41,640 nucleotides of DNA from a virus. Lineage: Duplodnaviria > Caudoviricetes. The position numbers and the translations under genes were made by a program. Under the pieces are notes generated by a model. The model was given only the letters and a program-made list of their open reading frames with translations, made no database searches and was not told where the DNA came from. Location of the stretch: positions 1-41,640 of IMG/VR virus record IMGVR_UViG_3300032254_000012; one strand, written 5' to 3'. Shown here one piece after another: positions 2,264-41,640 of this stretch (the first letter of the stretch is position 1; each line of letters begins with the position of its first letter).

Positions 2264-3331
2264 ATGGACGCACGCTTAGAAAAGGACAAATTGGTTACAC
2301 AGATACGGTCGGCAAATGATCGTGTCTCACAGACGCTCTCAGCGACCGAACAAAAAAACTTAAGTGTTGAATGGGTACAGGCGTTGTATGAGTGGACAAG
2401 TTATATCCGCATGGTTAGAAACTTGTCGGTTAATACTGCAGCAAATTATGTGCGATGGGTGGCTGACTGGATGGAACATATAAAAAATAACAATCTTGAA
2501 CTTGATCAGGCTACATCTAATCACGTTATTAGTTGGCAGCGCGATTTGGCTATGGTTAAAAAACTTGCGGCCAACACGCGTGGTATGGCACTCACATCGG
2601 TGCGATTGTTTTATGGGTGGCGTGAGCTGAATGGGTCGATGGGAAATCCTGCGCAAACGGTTAAGGGTCCTAAGCGCAGCAAGCGACAGCCTAGACGATT
2701 TTCGGATGAGCAATTATCAAAATTATTTCAGGCTCAAGATATTACAAAACCAATCGGGATACGTGACCGGGCAATGTTGCTGTTTTTTTATTCAACGGGC
2801 GCAAGACGGGAAGAGTTGGCAGGGTTAAATCTTCACCAACTGGTTTTAAAAACAAATACAGGCGCTGTTCGTTTTGTCGGCAAAGGTAACAAAGAGCGCA
2901 CTTTAAGCTTTGAAGGTCCGGTTGTTCAGGCGATGTATGACTGGCTTACTGTTCGTGACAGCGTAAGCGTTATTGATCATGACGCGGTGTTTGTAGGTTT
3001 GGCTTCCAGGGGAAAAGGACGCCGCTTATCTGTTACTGGTGTTGGCGTAATGATGAACCGAAATTGCAAATTGGCAAAAATAAAAAAACATCCTGATGAT
3101 CCTTTTGGGGTTCATCGGTTGCGTTCTTCCTTTGCAACTGACTTATACGACGCAGGGAAAGATGTGCGCGCAATTCAATTGTTGCTTGGTCATGATGATA
3201 TTAATACAACGATGAATTATATCGCTATATCGAACCGACAAATGCAAGAACGTATGCCAGCGTCAAGAGTAAACGAACTATTGGGAAATAAATCAGAGGT
3301 ACCGCAATATGTCCAAAACAAAATTGGTTGA
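2264..3331 (+). CDS. Tyrosine recombinase, XerC/D-like (no. 1)
   Basis: RDRAMLLFFYSTGARREEL, GKGNKER, HRLRSSFAT, LLGHDDINTTMNY: full R-K-H-R-H-Y set; SAM-like N-terminus. Confidence 0.95.
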   Translation: MDARLEKDKLVTQIRSANDRVSQTLSATEQKNLSVEWVQALYEWTSYIRMVRNLSVNTAANYVRWVADWMEHIKNNNLELDQATSNHVISWQRDLAMVKKLAANTRGMALTSVRLFYGWRELNGSMGNPAQTVKGPKRSKRQPRRFSDEQLSKLFQAQDITKPIGIRDRAMLLFFYSTGARREELAGLNLHQLVLKTNTGAVRFVGKGNKERTLSFEGPVVQAMYDWLTVRDSVSVIDHDAVFVGLASRGKGRRLSVTGVGVMMNRNCKLAKIKKHPDDPFGVHRLRSSFATDLYDAGKDVRAIQLLLGHDDINTTMNYIAISNRQMQERMPASRVNELLGNKSEVPQYVQNKIG

Positions 3332-10892: not shown

Positions 10893-11844
10893 ATGACGGC
10901 ATATTATAATGAACATGATCCGTATGCCGCGCAATGGTTAAGAAATTTAATTAAAGCAGGGCACATAGCGCCCGGTGATGTTGATGAAAGGAGCATAGAA
11001 GATGTTAGGCCAGCAGACCTTGTTCGATATACACAGTGCCACTTCTTCGCTGGAGTCGGAGTGTGGAGCTACGCGCTCCGACAAGCAGGATGGCCAGACG
11101 ACAAGCCAGTGTGGACGGGTTCCTGCCCATGCCAACCTTTCAGCGCGGCAGGCGAAGGAAAAGGGTTTGTTGACGAGCGGCACTTGTGGCCAGTCTGGTT
11201 TCATCTCATCACGCAGTCTAAAACTGAAACAATTTTTGGGGAACAGGTTGCAAGCGAGGACGGACTCACTTGGCTCGACCTTGTACAAACTGACTTGGAA
11301 GCTGCGGGCTACGCCAACGGGGCGTTTGATCTCTGCGCTGCGGGCGTTGGCGCACCGCACACCAGGCAACGTTTTTTCTTCGTGGCCGACTCCAGCAACG
11401 AGGGACCACAAGGGCGGATATCAGGGCGGAAGAATAAGAAACGGAAAAATCAGCACGGACACACTCGATGTGACAGCGCAGCTAGCAACATGGCCAACCC
11501 CTCAAGCAATAGATGGGCAGGGCAAGGCTTGCGCTCCAAGACTAAAGAAAGACAGCAATCGAGATCCAGCCCAGGCGGGCAGTTACAGATCGGATCTGAA
11601 AGATGCGCCGTACCTCATCCACAGCCAACCAATGGATTTTTGGGGGGGGGCAAAGTGGCTCTACTGTAGAGATGGAAAGCACCGCCCAATTGAACCCGGC
11701 ACATTCCCGCTGGCTAATGGGCTTGCCAATAGAGTGGGACGATTGCGCGCCTATGGCAACGCCATCAATGCGGAAGTTGCCATAGAATTTATATCTGCAT
11801 ATCTTCAATATATTAACCACGCCGCAGCCAATCAAGCAGCTTAA
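10893..11844 (+). pseudogene. C5 methyltransferase alpha chain, frameshifted at T5G9 (11637-11650)
   Basis: FFAGVG, SCPCQPFS, GEQV and APHTRQR in frame 10893; motif X (RLRAYGNAI) continues in the +1 frame after the tract. Confidence 0.8.
11002..11785 (+). pseudogene. Overlapping-frame methyltransferase beta chain (M.EcoHK31I-beta-like), same frameshift
   Basis: WPTP repeats in frame 11002; motif IX-like [17 protein letters not shown] in frame 11603, again +1 after the tract. Confidence 0.65.
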
Positions 11845-26029: not shown

Positions 26030-26373
26030 TGATGAAAGGATTCCCCAAACATATCGCAACAAAAAAGGACGTTGAGCAGCTAATGGCATACATCGGCACA
26101 CCCTCTGCGACACCTGAAAAAATGACAAAAGGACTTTTGTTTTTAAACAATTTATTAAACACAAAGCATTATGTGTTTGATCGTATTTTAACTTCATCAG
26201 AAACACCAGACGGCGTTGAGCCTGATTTTCGGGTGCTTGAAAATCAGGGCGCAAACAATGATGAACGGCACCAGTTTAGTTTTGTTGAAAACGCAAATGC
26301 ACAAATGATTAAGTTAGGACTAACAGAAATAGAAGTACAAAACCATATAACCATAGTTCAAGGGGCAATGTAA
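26029..26373 (+). CDS. Hypothetical tail-associated protein
   Basis: Coupled to both neighbours. Confidence 0.7.
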   Translation: MMKGFPKHIATKKDVEQLMAYIGTPSATPEKMTKGLLFLNNLLNTKHYVFDRILTSSETPDGVEPDFRVLENQGANNDERHQFSFVENANAQMIKLGLTEIEVQNHITIVQGAM

Positions 26374-27599
26374 TGGGAGCAACACAAGAAGAATTTAGAT
26401 TCGGCACAGCAGAAGAGCATGCGGTCATGGTCGGCGCTCTTAAGGAGGTCACTTATAATACAACCGATAATATATTGGTTGCTCATGACGGTGTAACACC
26501 AGGTGGGTTTCCTATTTTACCCTCGCAAGCGGCGGGGTTTGTTTCGTTGCAGGGTGAAATTTCAAAAGGGACGGGGGATACTTTAAACATACCGCAAGGC
26601 ATGGTGAATATAGGGGGTAACGGTAAGGGGTATATGCTCGCTGCTCAAGTTGATTTTGACCCTGTTTTAGAGGCTAATCGTGACTCATCATTTACTGCGT
26701 TGGCAGTGGGAGATGATATTTATATTTATGCTACGCAATATGCGAGCGGCACAGCTAAAATTGTTAGCTCAAAAAACAGTACGTTCCCAACCGGCTACAC
26801 CGCAACAAACTCTCGCAAAATTGGTGGTTTTCATTATGGCCGCGCTCGTGTGGTTGATGTTAACGGCACGCCGATTGATGGTGCCGGGGCGGTGTATGGT
26901 GCAGACGTAACAACACCATGGGAAGCCAACGTAACCAACGGCGCGATAGTGCCGAATAGCTGCTGGGATTTACAAAATCGCCCAACGTGTGACCCAACTG
27001 GCATGGCCAAGGTTGGTAATTTCTGGGTAGATATTTATCTCGCTTCTGCAAATGTTGCGCCGGTTGTCACCAACGGCAAGTTATCAGCAGGAACAAGCCA
27101 GTCAGCCTATGGCGGAACACCTTTAACTGGAACAGAGCTCCTTAATCAATATTTATTTAACGAGCTCGCATCTCGCACCGGCAAACGACTTTTATCGTTA
27201 AGCGAACATCATCAAATCTCAGAAGGCAGCCCGCAAGGGAATGGTGCGGATAATATTAACGCCTGGTCAGCAACAACAAACCCAGGGCGCGCAATAACCG
27301 GCACTGTAGTAAACGCAATAAGCGCCAACAACTTTATTGATTGCGTTGGCAATGTTTGGGAATGGCTTGATGAGTTTATGCAGAAGCCAACAGGCGCTAC
27401 TCCAGCATATTACGATCCGATGGCTGGCCAAGGTGTTGGTCAGCTATATATGTATGAAGCGACAGGTCTGGCGGCGGTGATCACTGGTGGCAATTGGAGC
27501 GACGGCGTGTTCGCCGGTTCGCGCTCGGTGTCCTTGAACAGCTCCCCGTGGAGCGTGAACACGAGCATTGGGTCCCGCTTCGCCTGTGACGCGCTGTAA
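26373..27599 (+). CDS. Mtd-like receptor-binding protein (Mtd_N plus FGE-type C-lectin fold), DGR-target type
   Basis: N-terminal FRFGTAEEH...VAHDGVTPGGFP; DCVGNVWEW; C-terminal GGNWSDG...GSR......PW....IGSRFACD. Confidence 0.85.
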   Translation: MGATQEEFRFGTAEEHAVMVGALKEVTYNTTDNILVAHDGVTPGGFPILPSQAAGFVSLQGEISKGTGDTLNIPQGMVNIGGNGKGYMLAAQVDFDPVLEANRDSSFTALAVGDDIYIYATQYASGTAKIVSSKNSTFPTGYTATNSRKIGGFHYGRARVVDVNGTPIDGAGAVYGADVTTPWEANVTNGAIVPNSCWDLQNRPTCDPTGMAKVGNFWVDIYLASANVAPVVTNGKLSAGTSQSAYGGTPLTGTELLNQYLFNELASRTGKRLLSLSEHHQISEGSPQGNGADNINAWSATTNPGRAITGTVVNAISANNFIDCVGNVWEWLDEFMQKPTGATPAYYDPMAGQGVGQLYMYEATGLAAVITGGNWSDGVFAGSRSVSLNSSPWSVNTSIGSRFACDAL

Positions 27600-32759: not shown

Positions 32760-33485
32760 ATGAAACTTATTGGCTACATTCGCGTTTCGACTGATGAGCA
32801 GGCTAAAGATGGTCAAAGCCTTTCTATTCAGGATTTGCAGCTGCATAAGTATTGTGAGCTGCATGGACACGAGTTGATAGATGTGATCGTTGACGATGGA
32901 GTTAGCGCAAGCATTAATCTGGATAAGCGCCCAGCCGGCTTTATGTTGCTTGATAGATTGAAAGATAAAGAGGCCGATGGTTTTGTTGTGCAGCGTTTGG
33001 ATCGCGCTTTTCGCATTACTATTGATGGTTTGTTGACTGCTGAGTTGTTTAACAAGCGCGGACTGACGATTCACTCTGTTAACGAACATATCGACACGAC
33101 CACGGCTTTTGGTAAGTTTGTTTTGCGTTCCATGCTTTCGATGGCCGAACTTGAGCGAGATAAAATTAGTGAGCGTGCCACAGAAACGTTTGAGGGTTTG
33201 CGTGACCAAGCCAAACCTTGGGGGCCAACACCGTTTGGGTTGGTTCGTGTTGGTGACAAACTTTATCGTGACAAAGAAACGTGGGCGGTGCGTGAGGCGG
33301 TTATTTCTTTGCGTGACACTCTTTCTTTGCGCGCTGTTTGTACTGAGCTGCAACAGCGTGACATTGCCAGCCCAAGCGGGGGCAAGTTGTGGCATCCAAG
33401 TACTTTGATTGGGATCATTAATAATCATAATGAGTTAAAGCATATACCTTTTTTAAAGGCTTGCAATGAAGCGCGGGTTTCATAG
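32760..33485 (+). CDS. Serine recombinase (resolvase/invertase family)
   Basis: GYIRVSTDEQ, DDGVSA, RLDRAFR, AELERDKISERA; short C-terminal DNA-binding region. Confidence 0.95.
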   Translation: MKLIGYIRVSTDEQAKDGQSLSIQDLQLHKYCELHGHELIDVIVDDGVSASINLDKRPAGFMLLDRLKDKEADGFVVQRLDRAFRITIDGLLTAELFNKRGLTIHSVNEHIDTTTAFGKFVLRSMLSMAELERDKISERATETFEGLRDQAKPWGPTPFGLVRVGDKLYRDKETWAVREAVISLRDTLSLRAVCTELQQRDIASPSGGKLWHPSTLIGIINNHNELKHIPFLKACNEARVS

Positions 33486-33503
33486 GTGAAGAATTTAAAA
33501 AAC

Positions 33504-33659
33504 ATTAAGAGTTCTTAGCGAGGGGAATAAGTAGCACAAGACTAAGTGCAACGAAATCAAAATAGCTACAGTTGAACGTTTTCCCAGCGTGCTGCTCCAT
33601 AAGACAACTAGAGATAACAGGTGGTTTGGTCACCGCCTCTCTCGCTAAGAATTCTTAAT
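33504..33659 (+). ncRNA. Putative structured RNA closed by a 22-bp stem
   Basis: 33504-33525 pairs with 33638-33659; all three non-Watson-Crick positions are G-U on the + strand. Confidence 0.5.
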
Positions 33660-33706
33660 ATTGTTTAATGTATTGCAATATAGCTCAATGAATAAAGGGG
33701 TGGGAT

Positions 33707-35169: not shown

Positions 35170-35387
35170 ACAACCATGTTAGCCAAAAAAAGCTAGAAGA
35201 TGTGTTGATTGCCATCTGGGGCGGCAAGAGTTATTCGCACTGGCAAATGGTGTCTTCTATTTGCTTTGGTTTTTCTTTACTTTTTAAAAATGCAGATAAT
35301 GATAAATTTTTACAGTGTTTTTGTTTATACCAAGTCGCCACGGTTATGGCCAATGAGTGTTGTAATAATTTAAAGGCAGCAGCATGA
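35166..35387 (+). CDS. Hypothetical protein
   Basis: ATGA-coupled ORF. Confidence 0.6.
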   Translation: MNNHVSQKKLEDVLIAIWGGKSYSHWQMVSSICFGFSLLFKNADNDKFLQCFCLYQVATVMANECCNNLKAAA

Positions 35388-36367
35388 CAAAAACGATTGA
35401 TTTTAAGCCCGTTCATTTTAAGCCTCGCGAGGTTTCTGTGCCTGGCGTGATTGTTAAAACAATGTCTCAGTTTATTGTTTTTTTAAGGGGGCATAATTTA
35501 TCAGATAATACATTGATAGCTTATCAAACAGACCTGGAACAATTAGCCGGTTTTTTGTTGTCGCGTGATATTCATCATGTGCAACAAGTTGCCACCCATC
35601 ATCTTGATGATTTTATTACGGCATTGGTTGACGGCGAAGGCATTAAGCCGCGCAGCGCTGCACGCAAACTGGCAACGGTTCGCCGGTTTTTTAAATTTTG
35701 TATAAGCCGTAAAATTATTTTAAGCGATCCGGCAATTCATACAGAAAAGGTTCGTTTTTCTTTTACGCCAGCCATTGCGCCGACAGAAGATGTTTTGTTG
35801 TCTCTTATTGAAAACATTCCCGCTAACACAACTATTGGCTTACGTGATCGAGCAATGTTTAGACTGCTTTATGATGCGGGCTTGCGGCGAGCCACATTGC
35901 GTGAGCTTGATGTTTTTAATGAGAAAAATCCGCCTGACTGCACTGTGTGGCCTAACCTTGTGGTGACGTTCACAAATAAAGGTGGCAACAATGAAAACAA
36001 CCCAATTAACGAAACCACTAAAAGATATGTGGATGAGTGGCTTGAGGTTCGCCAGCATTTTACGCGCAACAAAAGCTGTAATGCTTTATTTTTATCTAAC
36101 CGTGGGACGCGCTTAACCTCTAACGCAATTCATGATCGTTTAAAAATTTACGCTAAAAAAGAAGGGGTGCCGCATATGCATATGCATTTGTTTCGGCATG
36201 GAAGGGCGCGACATATTATTGATAAATTAGGCTTGCAAGCCGCTCAAGGCTTTTTAAAGCACTCAGACATTCGCACAACAGCAAACATTTATGGGCTTCA
36301 AGATACGGCTAAAGTGCGTCAAAAGCTACGAGATGAGTGCGAGCTTGGCACTGAGGCCGCAGCGTGA
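35384..36367 (+). CDS. Tyrosine recombinase, XerC/D-like (no. 2)
   Basis: SDNTLIAYQTDL, RDRAMFRLLYDAGLRR, NKGG, HLFRHG, LKHSDIRTTANIY. Confidence 0.93.
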   Translation: MTKTIDFKPVHFKPREVSVPGVIVKTMSQFIVFLRGHNLSDNTLIAYQTDLEQLAGFLLSRDIHHVQQVATHHLDDFITALVDGEGIKPRSAARKLATVRRFFKFCISRKIILSDPAIHTEKVRFSFTPAIAPTEDVLLSLIENIPANTTIGLRDRAMFRLLYDAGLRRATLRELDVFNEKNPPDCTVWPNLVVTFTNKGGNNENNPINETTKRYVDEWLEVRQHFTRNKSCNALFLSNRGTRLTSNAIHDRLKIYAKKEGVPHMHMHLFRHGRARHIIDKLGLQAAQGFLKHSDIRTTANIYGLQDTAKVRQKLRDECELGTEAAA

Positions 36368-39446: not shown

Positions 39447-39791
39447 ATGGAGCGAGACGTTAACGAAGTAAGGTTAAAAGGCCGCCTGGGAAGCAGCCTA
39501 AAAATAAACCCTGCGCGAACCGCCGCAATGGTATCAATTGCGACCAAAGAAGAATGGGGAGACCAAAACAAAAAAGAAAAAACCTCTTGGCATACTTTGC
39601 AGTTTTATGGAGCAAAGAAAGTGGCGGCTGCAGCAGATGCTTTAAGCAAGGGCAGCCGCGCTTATATAACAGGAAAACTACAGAACGAAAAATGGACAGG
39701 CGCTAACGGGCAAGATAACTTTATGACTAAAGTTGTTGTCGATACATTCGAGCCTTTAGATAAAAAGAAAACTACACCTACAAACAATTGA
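39447..39791 (+). CDS. ssb: Single-stranded DNA-binding protein (no acidic tail)
   Basis: VNEVRLKGRLG, TSWH, LSKGSRAYITGKLQNEKW. Confidence 0.9.
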   Translation: MERDVNEVRLKGRLGSSLKINPARTAAMVSIATKEEWGDQNKKEKTSWHTLQFYGAKKVAAAADALSKGSRAYITGKLQNEKWTGANGQDNFMTKVVVDTFEPLDKKKTTPTNN

Positions 39792-39801
39792 GGGGAACAC
39801 G

Positions 39802-39900
39802 ATGAGTAGACAATATGAAGAAATAAGCAACGCGGCAAGAACGCAAGGATTTTTGTCCGGCGTTATTGTTTCAAGTTTGTTTTGGTGGGTTTTTTCGTAA
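39802..39900 (+). CDS. 32-aa membrane peptide
   Basis: GAGGGG RBS; its TAA lies in the first TAAC box. Confidence 0.5.
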   Translation: MSRQYEEISNAARTQGFLSGVIVSSLFWWVFS

Positions 39901-39969
39901 CGATTGAGCTTAGGGGCGCGAGCGAAGCGAGTCCGAGTGAATAAAATGAGCGAACTGGAGTAATTTGTT

Positions 39970-40197
39970 ATGCAAGAAAATAAAACGATAACTATTAATT
40001 GGGATAAAGGCCGCATCTGGCATTCTGACTGCGACAACCATCTTGGTGGCGTAATGGTAGAAGTTAAGTCAAACGTGATGTTTGATGGGAAGCCTTACGG
40101 GCTAATGAAGTGCTTGCACTGTGACAGACAAGGTTACTACCCCAATGGTGGCAGTGGTAAATTTGAAGCTAAAGAAGTTAGTGAAAACGCTGCATAA
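39970..40197 (+). CDS. Cassette gene, small Cys/His protein
   Basis: Bounded by GTTATGCA / TGCATAAC. Confidence 0.75.
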   Translation: MQENKTITINWDKGRIWHSDCDNHLGGVMVEVKSNVMFDGKPYGLMKCLHCDRQGYYPNGGSGKFEAKEVSENAA

Positions 40198-40288
40198 CGA
40201 CTATATAACTGGCGCAGCTCCGCTGCGTCCAAACGAGCAAAGCAAGTGATGTTAATTGTTTTGTTATATTGTTTATTGGAGAAAGATT

Positions 40289-40489
40289 ATGAAGCAAGAA
40301 GAAATTAAAGAGTTAAAGAGAAAATTAGAAGCTGATATAGCTTGTGCAGTATCAAAGTTAACAAGAGAGTTTAACGAGCAGACAGGCTTTCAAATAAGCT
40401 CGGTTGGGATTGAGATAAGCGAGATAAAAACCGTAGGAAAAGAAGACGAATATGTTGTAACCGATGCTTTTGCTGGTATTGGAATATAA
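40289..40489 (+). CDS. Cassette gene, hypothetical
   Basis: GGAG RBS; bounded by GTTATATT / AATATAAC. Confidence 0.75.
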   Translation: MKQEEIKELKRKLEADIACAVSKLTREFNEQTGFQISSVGIEISEIKTVGKEDEYVVTDAFAGIGI

Positions 40490-40502
40490 CGCTTGAGGTT
40501 AG

Positions 40503-40658
40503 TTGAGAGCGAAAGCAAGTGAAACGCCGCTTTATGGATTTTTTTGTAATAAACGCTGCAATTTAAGCGATCGAGAGGAAGACAAACTTCTCTCTAATTT
40601 AAGCAAAGAATCATACAGACAAAAAAGTAAGGTGTGTTTTGAGGGGAAAGAAATATAA
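40503..40658 (+). CDS. Possible cassette gene remnant (51 aa, TTG start)
   Basis: GAGG at 40495 inside the degenerate site; stop in ATATAAC. Confidence 0.35.
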   Translation: MRAKASETPLYGFFCNKRCNLSDREEDKLLSNLSKESYRQKSKVCFEGKEI

Positions 40659-40741
40659 CGCAGAGTTGTTGGGTGGCCGGTTTTATCGGCCATCACGCAC
40701 GAACGCCTTGTTACATGGCTAACTATTTGAGGAAATAAGTG

Positions 40742-40918
40742 ATGGAAGAAATACAAAAGTCTTTTGAGGATTGGTTTATTAATATGCACGGTGATGTAGA
40801 CGAAAGCCTTGTCAAAAATAAAACAGATGATGGTAAGCGGTATATTGATAGCACTACCGATAGCGCGTGGTTTTGCTTTAAAGCTGGCTATTGTCATTGT
40901 GCAACTAAAGACATGTAA
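40742..40918 (+). CDS. Cassette gene, hypothetical (58 aa, not in ORF track)
   Basis: GAGG RBS; MEEIQKSFEDWF...AWFCFKAG; bounded by GTTACATG / CATGTAAC. Confidence 0.75.
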   Translation: MEEIQKSFEDWFINMHGDVDESLVKNKTDDGKRYIDSTTDSAWFCFKAGYCHCATKDM

Positions 40919-40941
40919 CGCTAACTATTGAGGGGCGCACG

Positions 40942-41517
40942 ATGAATACGGAAAATAAAGCTAAATGCCCAAAGCATGATACAGGTGGTGGACCATGTTA
41001 CTGCGACAATGTAAGTGCGTCCGGCTCGAATGACTTGTTATCTTCCGAAACTGGAGCAACTTTTTCTCAAGATAGGAATTACCGATATTCGCTTTGGCGG
41101 CGATGGGAGCATAACGCGCCTTATGTTTTATTTGTTGGCCTAAACCCTTCGACCGCTAATGAAAACGAAGATGATCCAACAATTAGACGATGCAAGCGTT
41201 TTGCGGCTGATTGGGGCTTCGGTGCTATATACATGGCGAATTTGTTCGCACTACGCGCAACAGACCCAAAGGACATGCTGGCTCATGACAAACCAGAAGG
41301 AGTTGATAACGATAAAACTCTTCAAAAGTTGGCGCGTGGTGCAGGAGTTATAGTTTGTGCTTGGGGTGCGCACGGTGGGCACAAAGGGCGGGACGAATAC
41401 GTAGCACGATTATTAGAAGCGTATGAATTGAAGTGTCTCGGTGTAACTAAAGCAGGAAAGCCTAGGCATCCTCTTTATATTAAAGCGGATAAACAACTCG
41501 AAGCACTAGGAAGATAA
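40942..41517 (+). CDS. DUF1643 family protein (cassette gene)
   Basis: YRYSLWRRW, GLNPSTA...DDPTIRRC, NLFALRATDP, AWG, PRHPLY. Confidence 0.9.
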   Translation: MNTENKAKCPKHDTGGGPCYCDNVSASGSNDLLSSETGATFSQDRNYRYSLWRRWEHNAPYVLFVGLNPSTANENEDDPTIRRCKRFAADWGFGAIYMANLFALRATDPKDMLAHDKPEGVDNDKTLQKLARGAGVIVCAWGAHGGHKGRDEYVARLLEAYELKCLGVTKAGKPRHPLYIKADKQLEALGR

Positions 41518-41535
41518 CGATAGAGGTAAGCGGAG

Positions 41536-41640
41536 ATGAACGAAGCGCAGCGTAGTGAAGAGTCCGGCGACGAAGGAGCGAACTTGACCGTTTTGTTATC
41601 TTCTGCTGGATACATGCACCCTAAAGAGCTTGAGCGTATG
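41536..41640 (+). CDS. Partial cassette gene starting inside the last attC-like site
   Basis: GGAG-ATG at 41536; 35 codons open to the window end. Confidence 0.55.
   Translation, partial: MNEAQRSEESGDEGANLTVLLSSAGYMHPKELERM

Follow-up and report, generated by a model that had tools for sequence, protein, structure and literature searches.

The window analysed here, 41,640 nucleotides (nt) of a tailed phage (IMG/VR record IMGVR_UViG_3300032254_000012), ends within an array of attC recombination sites and small gene cassettes. We put at about 0.82 the probability that this array belongs to a complete phage-encoded integron in which all genes lie on the bottom strand of the attC sites, the moving unit consists of an attC, the gene behind it and the TAA stop codon of that gene, and the integron integrase (IntI) is predicted to cut at AA^C (the caret marks the crossover). 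The geometry of intI, attI and attC is canonical and only the genes are reversed, which makes this a new integron variant, with the whole array inverted against its genes.

The integrase was found through a metagenome scan, which returned a locus (L085; window position = L085 position + 35941) that is identical to the window across the whole overlap and bridges the 2.8-kb gap between window end and window start. It adds two more attC sites, an attI-like junction and an intact integron integrase. The contiguity was confirmed by a circular contig of 44,442 nt (run X1), which spans L085 2500-8000 with 0 differences; run X1 is possibly where the window comes from, so that it supports the contiguity and is not an independent sample. 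[quoted passage not shown]

That the coding strand is the attC bottom strand, as a previous sequence-only reading had proposed, was borne out by a detector built in the bottom-strand view (AAC, 5-7 nt, a 7-nt L' box, a loop, an 8-nt L'' box with one unpaired base, 5 nt, GTT). Its strict-seed step, applied to 35 bacterial IntI loci, found 54 sites with the bottom strand on the intI strand versus 1 on the other strand. A position weight matrix combined with box pairing was trained on 70 sites from bacteria and from two published phage-borne integrons, and gene direction was not used in the training. In the whole 41.6-kb window the trained detector found 5 sites on the plus strand and 0 on the minus strand, at a chance level of 0.17 sites per window (30 dinucleotide shuffles, same threshold). 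The same AAC/GTT pairs scored 8 to 26 with the bottom strand on plus, and -13 to -25, or failed, with the bottom strand on minus. Recombination of the coding strand is to be expected from this anatomy and from published assays on similar sites, in which the bottom strand of attCs had a roughly 1000-fold advantage in recombination, with cleavage at AA^C (PMC8946536, PMC7439510).

The attC anatomy, i.e., inverted R''/R' and L''/L' boxes, unpaired spacers and an unpaired base in L'', is present in seven complete sites of the window and L085 together. The right spacer is always 5 nt long and the left one 5-7 nt. On the plus strand the L'/L'' pairs read GCTTAGG/ACTGgAGT in site 1, TATAACT/TGTTaATT in site 2, GTTGTTG/GCACgAAC in site 4, ATTGAGG/GCTCgAAT in site 5 (L'' at 41024-41031) and GGTAAGC/ACTTgACC in site 6 (unpaired base in lower case), and all motifs quoted in the sequence-only reading were recovered at their stated positions. 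The coding strand of the window reads TAACG...TTGTTA, which is the mirror image of a canonical control, Shewanella phage M16-3, whose coding strand reads TAACAA...GCGTTA. The bottom strand of aadA7, as printed in Table S3 of PMC9892861, agrees with the coding strand of the window, which bears out the resemblance to aadA-type sites pointed out in the sequence-only reading. Six sites had been counted in the window; sites 1, 2, 4, 5 and 6 are complete, and site 3 consists of a left half only. Every detected site has its bottom strand on plus, so that the inversion is indeed consistent across the array. The plus strand had the lower folding energy in 5 of 5 free folds and in 6 of 7 constrained folds, and the R stem was favoured only by sites 4, 6 and 7 (pair probability 0.42-0.89).

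IntI comprises 320 amino acids (aa) and scores 426 bits on TIGR02249 (cut-off 265); the two other tyrosine recombinases of the window, with 32 and 95 bits, were ruled out as IntIs. It aligns without gaps across the IntI-specific insert to the IntI of M16-3 (46% identity) and retains R135, K160, H266, R269, H292 and Y301, which we take to be the catalytic set. The last cassette gene stops at a TAA^C that is not followed by an attC, and intI starts 50 nt further on. A related phage (L165) encodes an IntI with 85% identity and carries a different six-site array, and the homology between L085 and L165 starts at exactly this TAA^C. A core of the type TAACAG/TAACTAG-AT recurs at the attI-like position in 9 loci of the same IntI clade, and in 25 of 37 inverted viral loci the 200 nt that precede intI contain a TAAC (median 85 nt) with a gene stop no more than 15 nt away. 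The region has the R-box core beside the 5' end of intI and the junction between foreign and platform DNA that characterize an attI. No LexA box was found near intI, and scans for promoters and terminators yielded nothing above chance level, so that transcription would most simply come from the phage operon by read-through.

The cassette genes are co-directional with intI, which sits downstream of the array. Because intI, the attI-like site and the attCs are arranged as in any integron, the genes are the reversed element. The locus differs from integrons with an inverted integrase, as the relation of intI to the attCs is standard, and from canonical cassettes, as all genes lie on the bottom strand, behind their own attC and facing intI.

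Units of movement and their breakpoints

The bottom-strand crossover lies between A and C of RYYYAAC (PMC7439510), which here corresponds to each site's left end. The earlier proposal that each site travels with the gene downstream of it is substantiated by homology breakpoints at TAA^C. The DUF1643 cassette (cassette 5) ends at the same TAA^C in L085 and in two further loci, L005 and L006, and is followed by three unrelated continuations. In L005 it is a lone cassette (55% guanine plus cytosine (GC), flanks 64-66%) at the stop codon of a portal gene that is 49% identical to that of the window. The equivalent place in the window is occupied by methyltransferase genes and has no attC site; the two overlapping open reading frames (ORFs) there (10893-11844, different frames, 51% GC) look like a split or frameshifted cytosine methyltransferase, at the position that the DUF1643 cassette has in this related phage.

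A second cassette bounded by the crossover in more than one context is cassette 6. In run X2 a 347-nt contig covers site 6 and its gene without a difference at a depth of 62, versus 38 and 36 in the flanks, and another contig (depth 21) joins the end of the cassette 6 gene to a variant of site 8. These contigs support, and do not prove, that one cassette 6 is present in two arrays of one sample, the joined side being 23 nt long. A 321-nt joint that skips cassette 7 was considered as an excision in this phage and rejected, since it comes from the contig of a relative (13 differences, 23-nt side).

Nearly the same attC precedes two unrelated genes in L085 (6231-6315) and L165 (6362-6446), and runs X1-X3 contain several further variants of this attC that have different neighbours on either side. 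Contig 9 of run X2 contains a variant of site 5 (14 differences) followed by a different sequence just past the GTT box, and the leader-encoding site 5 may have been swapped between gene bodies.

The direction of travel bears on two further readings. A phage IntI with a reversed strand preference would recombine the minus strand, and each site would travel with the gene in front of it. Top-strand recombination does exist at low frequency and changes of the extrahelical bases can shift the strand choice (PMC2727003), but the relation of intI, attI-like site and attCs is that of the bacterial loci used for the detector, and the shared units consist of a site and its downstream gene, which renders such a preference very improbable. 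Alternatively, a captured bacterial integron might have its true genes on the minus strand, the plus-strand ORFs being shadows; in published cases, phage-borne integrons were captured from hosts and have canonical genes (PMC9892861). In the L085 cassettes, minus-strand ORFs reach 61 codons at most and the longest has no family match, while the plus-strand ORFs have Shine-Dalgarno (SD) sequences, stop at TAA^C and match DUF1643, phrog_3230 and phrog_7810. These family matches refute a captured integron, to which we give next to no weight.

Predicted starts inside the attC sites

The sequence-only reading had defined the cassettes as a class with a translated recombination site. Its observations hold: the ribosome-binding site (RBS), the ATG and the first 32 or so codons of the DUF1643 gene lie inside site 5 (the ATG is 98 nt, or 32.7 codons, before the end of the GTT box), the next gene starts inside site 6 together with its SD (62 nt upstream of where the GTT box ends), and the GGAG that serves the first cassette gene is the L'' box of site 1. 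As a definition, only the inversion stands, which covers the whole array; the predicted translation would apply fully to 2 and partly to 1 of the 7 complete sites, and to 28 of 167 viral sites. The defining trait is the reversed gene polarity and not an RBS, start or N-terminus inside the site. Four of the seven complete sites (2, 4, 7 and 8) are followed by ordinary starts with their own SD and ATG 23-29 nt past GTT.

Among the 167 viral sites (a count that omits two phage loci with canonical arrays, L180 and L184), 33 contain an SD and ATG on the bottom strand and 2 on the top strand, compared to 3 of 114 bacterial or published sites. From such an in-site start, 28 (about 17%) are open for at least 40 codons past GTT, and 22 of these have no alternative downstream; 101 of the 167 have an ordinary downstream start. 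An in-site ATG is open past GTT in 28 of 35 cases with an SD and in 24 of 91 without. Judged from sequence, in-site starts are well above chance, and they are forced in the case of DUF1643, which has no in-frame ATG, GTG or TTG between the GTT box and the domain (the Pfam match starts at residue 48).

It is conceivable that the cassettes are inverted and that the starts in sites 5 and 6 are gene-calling artefacts, the proteins starting behind or at the edge of the GTT box. A methionine just behind the site is kept in 10 of 10 cassette-6 proteins and is a possible alternative start, both sites have an in-frame TTG 5 nt short of where the GTT box ends, N-termini in databases are predictions, and the leaders are mutually unrelated, i.e., there is no visible selection at the protein level. 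However, neither that methionine nor the TTGs have an SD in site 5 or 6. The attCs of the three DUF1643 cassettes in L005, L006 and L085 are all different and their L boxes co-vary; each attC supplies its own in-frame SD and start, and the distance from GTT to the conserved core is 97 nt in all three cassettes. Together with the surplus of in-site starts on the bottom strand and the missing standard start of DUF1643, this makes an artefact rather unlikely. Most of the closest DUF1643 homologues share an NDLLS-like motif, which is the reading of spacer and R'', and have unrelated leaders in front of it; likewise, 9 of 9 cassette-6 homologues have unrelated leaders joined at the R''-encoded motif. 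In-site initiation is predicted to be a selected minority trait, mostly of long sites. Several in-site leaders are rich in Cys and His and look like the 5' ends of small phage genes.

Inverted and canonical arrays in viruses and bacteria

For a survey, 82 viral IntI loci were scored (L085 itself was left out, as were L166, a duplicate of L178, and L168, with 29% identity), the viral set being made up of the 80 top-ranking among 588 matches to this IntI. On the bacterial side, 1 of 64 parts of the collection supplied 79 loci, of which 50 were scored and 29 partial or XerC-like rows dropped; related loci are not independent in either set. Among the loci with at least two sites, 37 of 40 viral loci were inverted, 2 canonical and 1 a tie, in contrast to 1 inverted, 15 canonical and 2 ties among 18 bacterial loci. 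A gene was opened by an SD and ATG on the bottom versus the top strand in 92 versus 2 cases at 175 distinct viral sites and in 1 versus 12 cases at 85 bacterial sites; stop codons beside the site numbered 102 versus 59 in viruses and 17 versus 54 in bacteria. PHROG matches were obtained for 31 of 113 bottom-strand ORFs and for 1 of 115 top-strand ORFs, the latter in a canonical array. The cargo of the inverted pool is of phage type (DNA methyltransferases, Mom-like and Lar-like proteins, an exonuclease, RtcB).

These hallmarks, i.e., stops and SD-preceded starts checked with PHROGs, replaced a longest-ORF classifier, which had called 44 viral cassettes inverted, 34 canonical and 61 ambiguous (bacterial: 2, 44 and 14) and which misread GC-rich viral cassettes. 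Clustering of the IntIs at 70% gave 22 viral groups, 20 with inverted loci and 2 with canonical ones. In a quick IntI tree of 86 rows the inverted IntIs fall in several groups and the starred branches force at least 3 changes, so that one origin of inverted integrons is not supported. Of 140 DUF1643 loci, 6 (including that of the window) have an inverted site in front and 3 a canonical site beside the gene; the rest have none. These loci come from alignment scans, because a single-protein scan had returned only two distant loci without sites. In the virus Rctr41k, genes of the same direction lie upstream of an IntI-like gene, and no attC was detected.

Several observations count against the proposed integron. 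The viral sample was drawn from the closest IntI matches and is biased toward relatives. Canonical arrays occur in phages too (L180, L184 and phage TJE1), and DUF1643 lies beside canonical sites in L066, L091 and L147, i.e., one family is found in both cassette types. Sites 1, 2, 5 and 8 make poor canonical hairpins (R-stem pair probability 0.02-0.13), and for site 8 the minus strand gives the slightly better fold. Site 3 is broken, its left half having no right arm; it is likely a deletion remnant, and an intact L165 site shares its loop motif. The 5' ends of the three DUF1643 cassettes diverge inside the attC and not at the crossover, near-identical attCs precede different genes, and a single gene is found with different attCs, the breakpoints falling at or close to R''. 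Such internal breakpoints and shared attCs indicate that a process besides the IntI crossover also reshuffles cassettes.

The array could accordingly be a relic with the right geometry, its cassettes being moved through the shared attCs by homologous or illegitimate recombination and not by IntI. The deletion remnant at site 3, the poorly folding sites, the attC-internal breakpoints and the occurrence of one attC before different genes would fit, and the genome encodes three XerC-like recombinases and one serine recombinase besides IntI. On the other hand, IntI has its full length and all invariant residues, the 3' breakpoints lie exactly at TAA^C, the lone cassette of L005 has no neighbouring attC that could offer homology, and the L' and L'' boxes co-vary across the three DUF1643 cassettes. 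A relic is unlikely on this evidence, and the complete integron with reversed genes is the reading that we follow below.

Array map, genome setting and wider meaning

The features of the array are compiled in Table 1. The crossover-to-crossover units measure 297, 292, 169, 260, 599, 339, 321 and 305 bp. The cassette 1 protein as a query returned no viral loci, and the cassette 2 protein has a weak GnsA/B match in Pfam that is below the cut-off. In front of site 1, the 32-codon ORF is headed by a stretch (window 39783-39870) with 76% similarity to the beginning of site 5 (L' box, SD and ATG), a likeness noted for the 5' end at 39783-39820; the stretch is possibly a decayed site 0.

Table 1. Features of the array and its integrase; positions refer to the window unless L085 is named.
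Feature	Position	Strand	Remarks
32-codon ORF after ssb gene	39802..39900	+	TAA is the crossover triplet (TAA^C) of site 1; distal array end
attC site 1	39895..39973	bottom on +	L'' holds GGAG; ATG of next gene overlaps R'' (GTT/ATG); score 14.6
Cassette 1 gene	39970..40197	+	75 aa, no family; ends at TAA^C of site 2
attC site 2	40192..40269	bottom on +	unpaired A; score 17.8
Cassette 2 gene	40289..40489	+	66 aa; own SD and ATG 23 nt past GTT; stop is TAA^C of site 3
Site 3	40484..40658	+	attC left half (TAAC at 40487) joined to apparent gene tail ending at TAA^C of site 4; 169 bp; likely internal-deletion remnant
attC site 4	40653..40716	bottom on +	score 8.1; single hairpin fold
Cassette 4 gene	40739..40918	+	58-59 aa; own SD and start 26-29 nt past GTT; stop is TAA^C of site 5
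attC site 5	40913..41043	bottom on +	131 nt; contains SD (GAGG), ATG 40942 and first 32 DUF1643 codons; score 23.9
Cassette 5 gene, DUF1643	40942..41517	+	PF07799 at residues 48-178; phrog_3230; stop is TAA^C of site 6
attC site 6	41512..41601	bottom on +	contains SD (GGAG) and ATG 41536; score 26.3
Cassette 6 gene	41536..41640	+	start only in window; 104 aa in L085
attC site 7	AAC at L085 5914		beyond window
Cassette 7 gene			81 aa; beyond window
attC site 8	L085 6235		beyond window
Cassette 8 gene			68 aa; beyond window
attI-like junction	L085 6539-6542		TAA^C
intI	L085 6590-7552	+	
XerC-like gene	L085 7565-8554	-	runs into window position 1

The phage nature of the window is evident from PHROG matches for portal, minor tail, tape measure, DnaC-like loader and SSB, and the array begins just 3' of ssb, where a rightward block of small genes ends. 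The five recombinases of the 44-kb genome are the three XerC-like enzymes, the serine recombinase and IntI (window 2264-3331, 32760-33485 and 35384-36367, and the last two genes of Table 1). Directly after the serine recombinase gene lies a 28-nt inverted repeat (33495-33668; 89%, arms 118 nt apart). In the gene for a 292-aa protein before the DnaC-like loader, repeated CCCTCGT-type motifs (480-680) resemble the iterons of a replication origin. The C-terminus of ORF 26373-27599 presumably resembles the Mtd/C-type-lectin-like end of tail fibres; a reverse transcriptase gene was not noticed in the ORF list of the window. In an unrelated phage (L001, L002) a reverse-transcriptase-like ORF upstream of DUF1643, itself preceded by a repeat-like region, resembles a diversity-generating retroelement. 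The GC skew is positive on the plus strand, but it tracks the coding strand. A lagging-strand-template account of the polarity, which was also considered, gains no clear support from this skew; a leftward fork from an origin in the nearby initiator-like gene would make plus the leading template.

The closest known systems are the complete integrons of M16-3 and Vibrio phage Va_90-11-286_p16 (PMC9892861) and class 1 integrons. They share with the present one the IntI family (46-48% identity to the two phage-borne IntIs), the attC boxes, spacers and unpaired base, the array upstream of intI with the bottom strands on the intI strand, and the AA^C crossover. In the present phage, by contrast, the genes occupy the bottom strand and face intI, each gene comes after its site, the cargo is of phage type, the crossover is only 50 nt from intI, and neither a LexA box nor a promoter match above chance was found. 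Among 10,705 phage genomes, Qi et al. (2023) reported 17 CALINs besides 3 complete integrons and 1 lone integrase; five phage attCs recombined with IntI1, the bottom strand over the top strand (PMC9892861). The phage CALINs (TJE1, PH101 and P12002L) are likewise attC clusters in phage genomes, but the present phage has its own IntI and an attI-like site. TJE1 and PH101 were both called typical (PMC9892861). On re-examination, the TJE1 array is canonical, while in PH101 (KR534323, L330, 25923-27983) the bottom strand of 4 of 4 sites coincides with the strand that carries the annotated genes, i.e., the sites are inverted as in the present phage; 1 of its 3 cassettes is clearly inverted by ORF length (612 versus 201 nt), and the other two have genes with SD and ATG on that strand. 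As two PH101 sites were in the IntI1 assay, recombination of a phage coding strand has already been shown, on which the accessible part of the text is silent; that part likewise makes no mention of the polarity of genes versus attCs or of translated sites (PMC9892861).

IntI also inserts cassettes at short GWT sites outside attI, which yields single attC sites lacking integron-integrases (SALINs; Loot et al., 10.1101/2022.09.11.507474). The lone cassette at the portal stop codon in L005 fits such an attG insertion, but that work deals with canonical cassettes in bacterial chromosomes and, as far as its available sections go, does not treat inverted genes or phage operons. Gene orientation also departs from the rule in antisense superintegron cassettes (parDE3, with its own opposite promoter; 10.1101/2023.11.21.568050), but these are single self-promoted cassettes. 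In the reverse-orientation IntIs of Spirochaetota intI is flipped against a canonical array (10.1101/2022.02.06.479319), whereas here every gene is flipped and intI is not. Synthetic attCs in coding sequences are both recombined and translated (Nivina et al., 2020, PMC7439510), but they are engineered linkers; in sites 5 and 6 the same would occur naturally, with the initiation signals included. A literature search that covered few subscription journals found no account of such inverted arrays, nor of attCs that are translated in nature.

We propose that the phage operon likely reads through the cassettes and then intI, that IntI would cut and join at AA^C just behind the stop codon of each gene, and that units of a site plus its downstream gene would be excised and reinserted beside intI, so that new cassettes would enter at the 3' end of the operon. 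Because the site precedes its gene, long sites such as sites 5 and 6 can carry an RBS, a start codon and a variable leader, while in most cassettes an ordinary start would come shortly after the site. Speculatively, a TAA stop with a C next to it may act as a GTTA target on the antisense strand and would offer a harmless insertion point in a gene-dense operon. The polarity probably results from this target and from the expression of bottom-strand genes only at that place. Phage genes between two TAA^C sites could even become new cassettes, a speculation that L005 and the distal array end would fit.

The choice of the attC strand is taught as a device that orients cassette genes for the Pc promoter (PMC8946536, PMC2727003). 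Many phage integrons use this chemistry in the reverse layout, so that the rule holds for bacterial integrons only. Tools and papers that pair an attC with its upstream gene will mis-assign inverted cassettes. Under a bacterial Pc, no expression would be expected from an inverted cassette, and vice versa. Phages likely trade a mirror-image pool of gene cassettes, which may be their counterpart to the anti-phage libraries in host integrons. Natural translated attCs would account for a recurring oddity of phage proteins, namely unrelated leaders that end in LLS/LVM-type motifs. The present phage offers a matched IntI, an attI-like site and seven attCs in one system. Tentatively, and with more doubt than confidence, we suggest that phages run a separate mirror-image integron economy that has arisen several times, with TAA^C stops as targets and translated attCs as portable modules of RBS, start and leader that are exchanged among gene bodies; if true, this would open a testable DNA-level route to the unsolved origin of gene cassettes.

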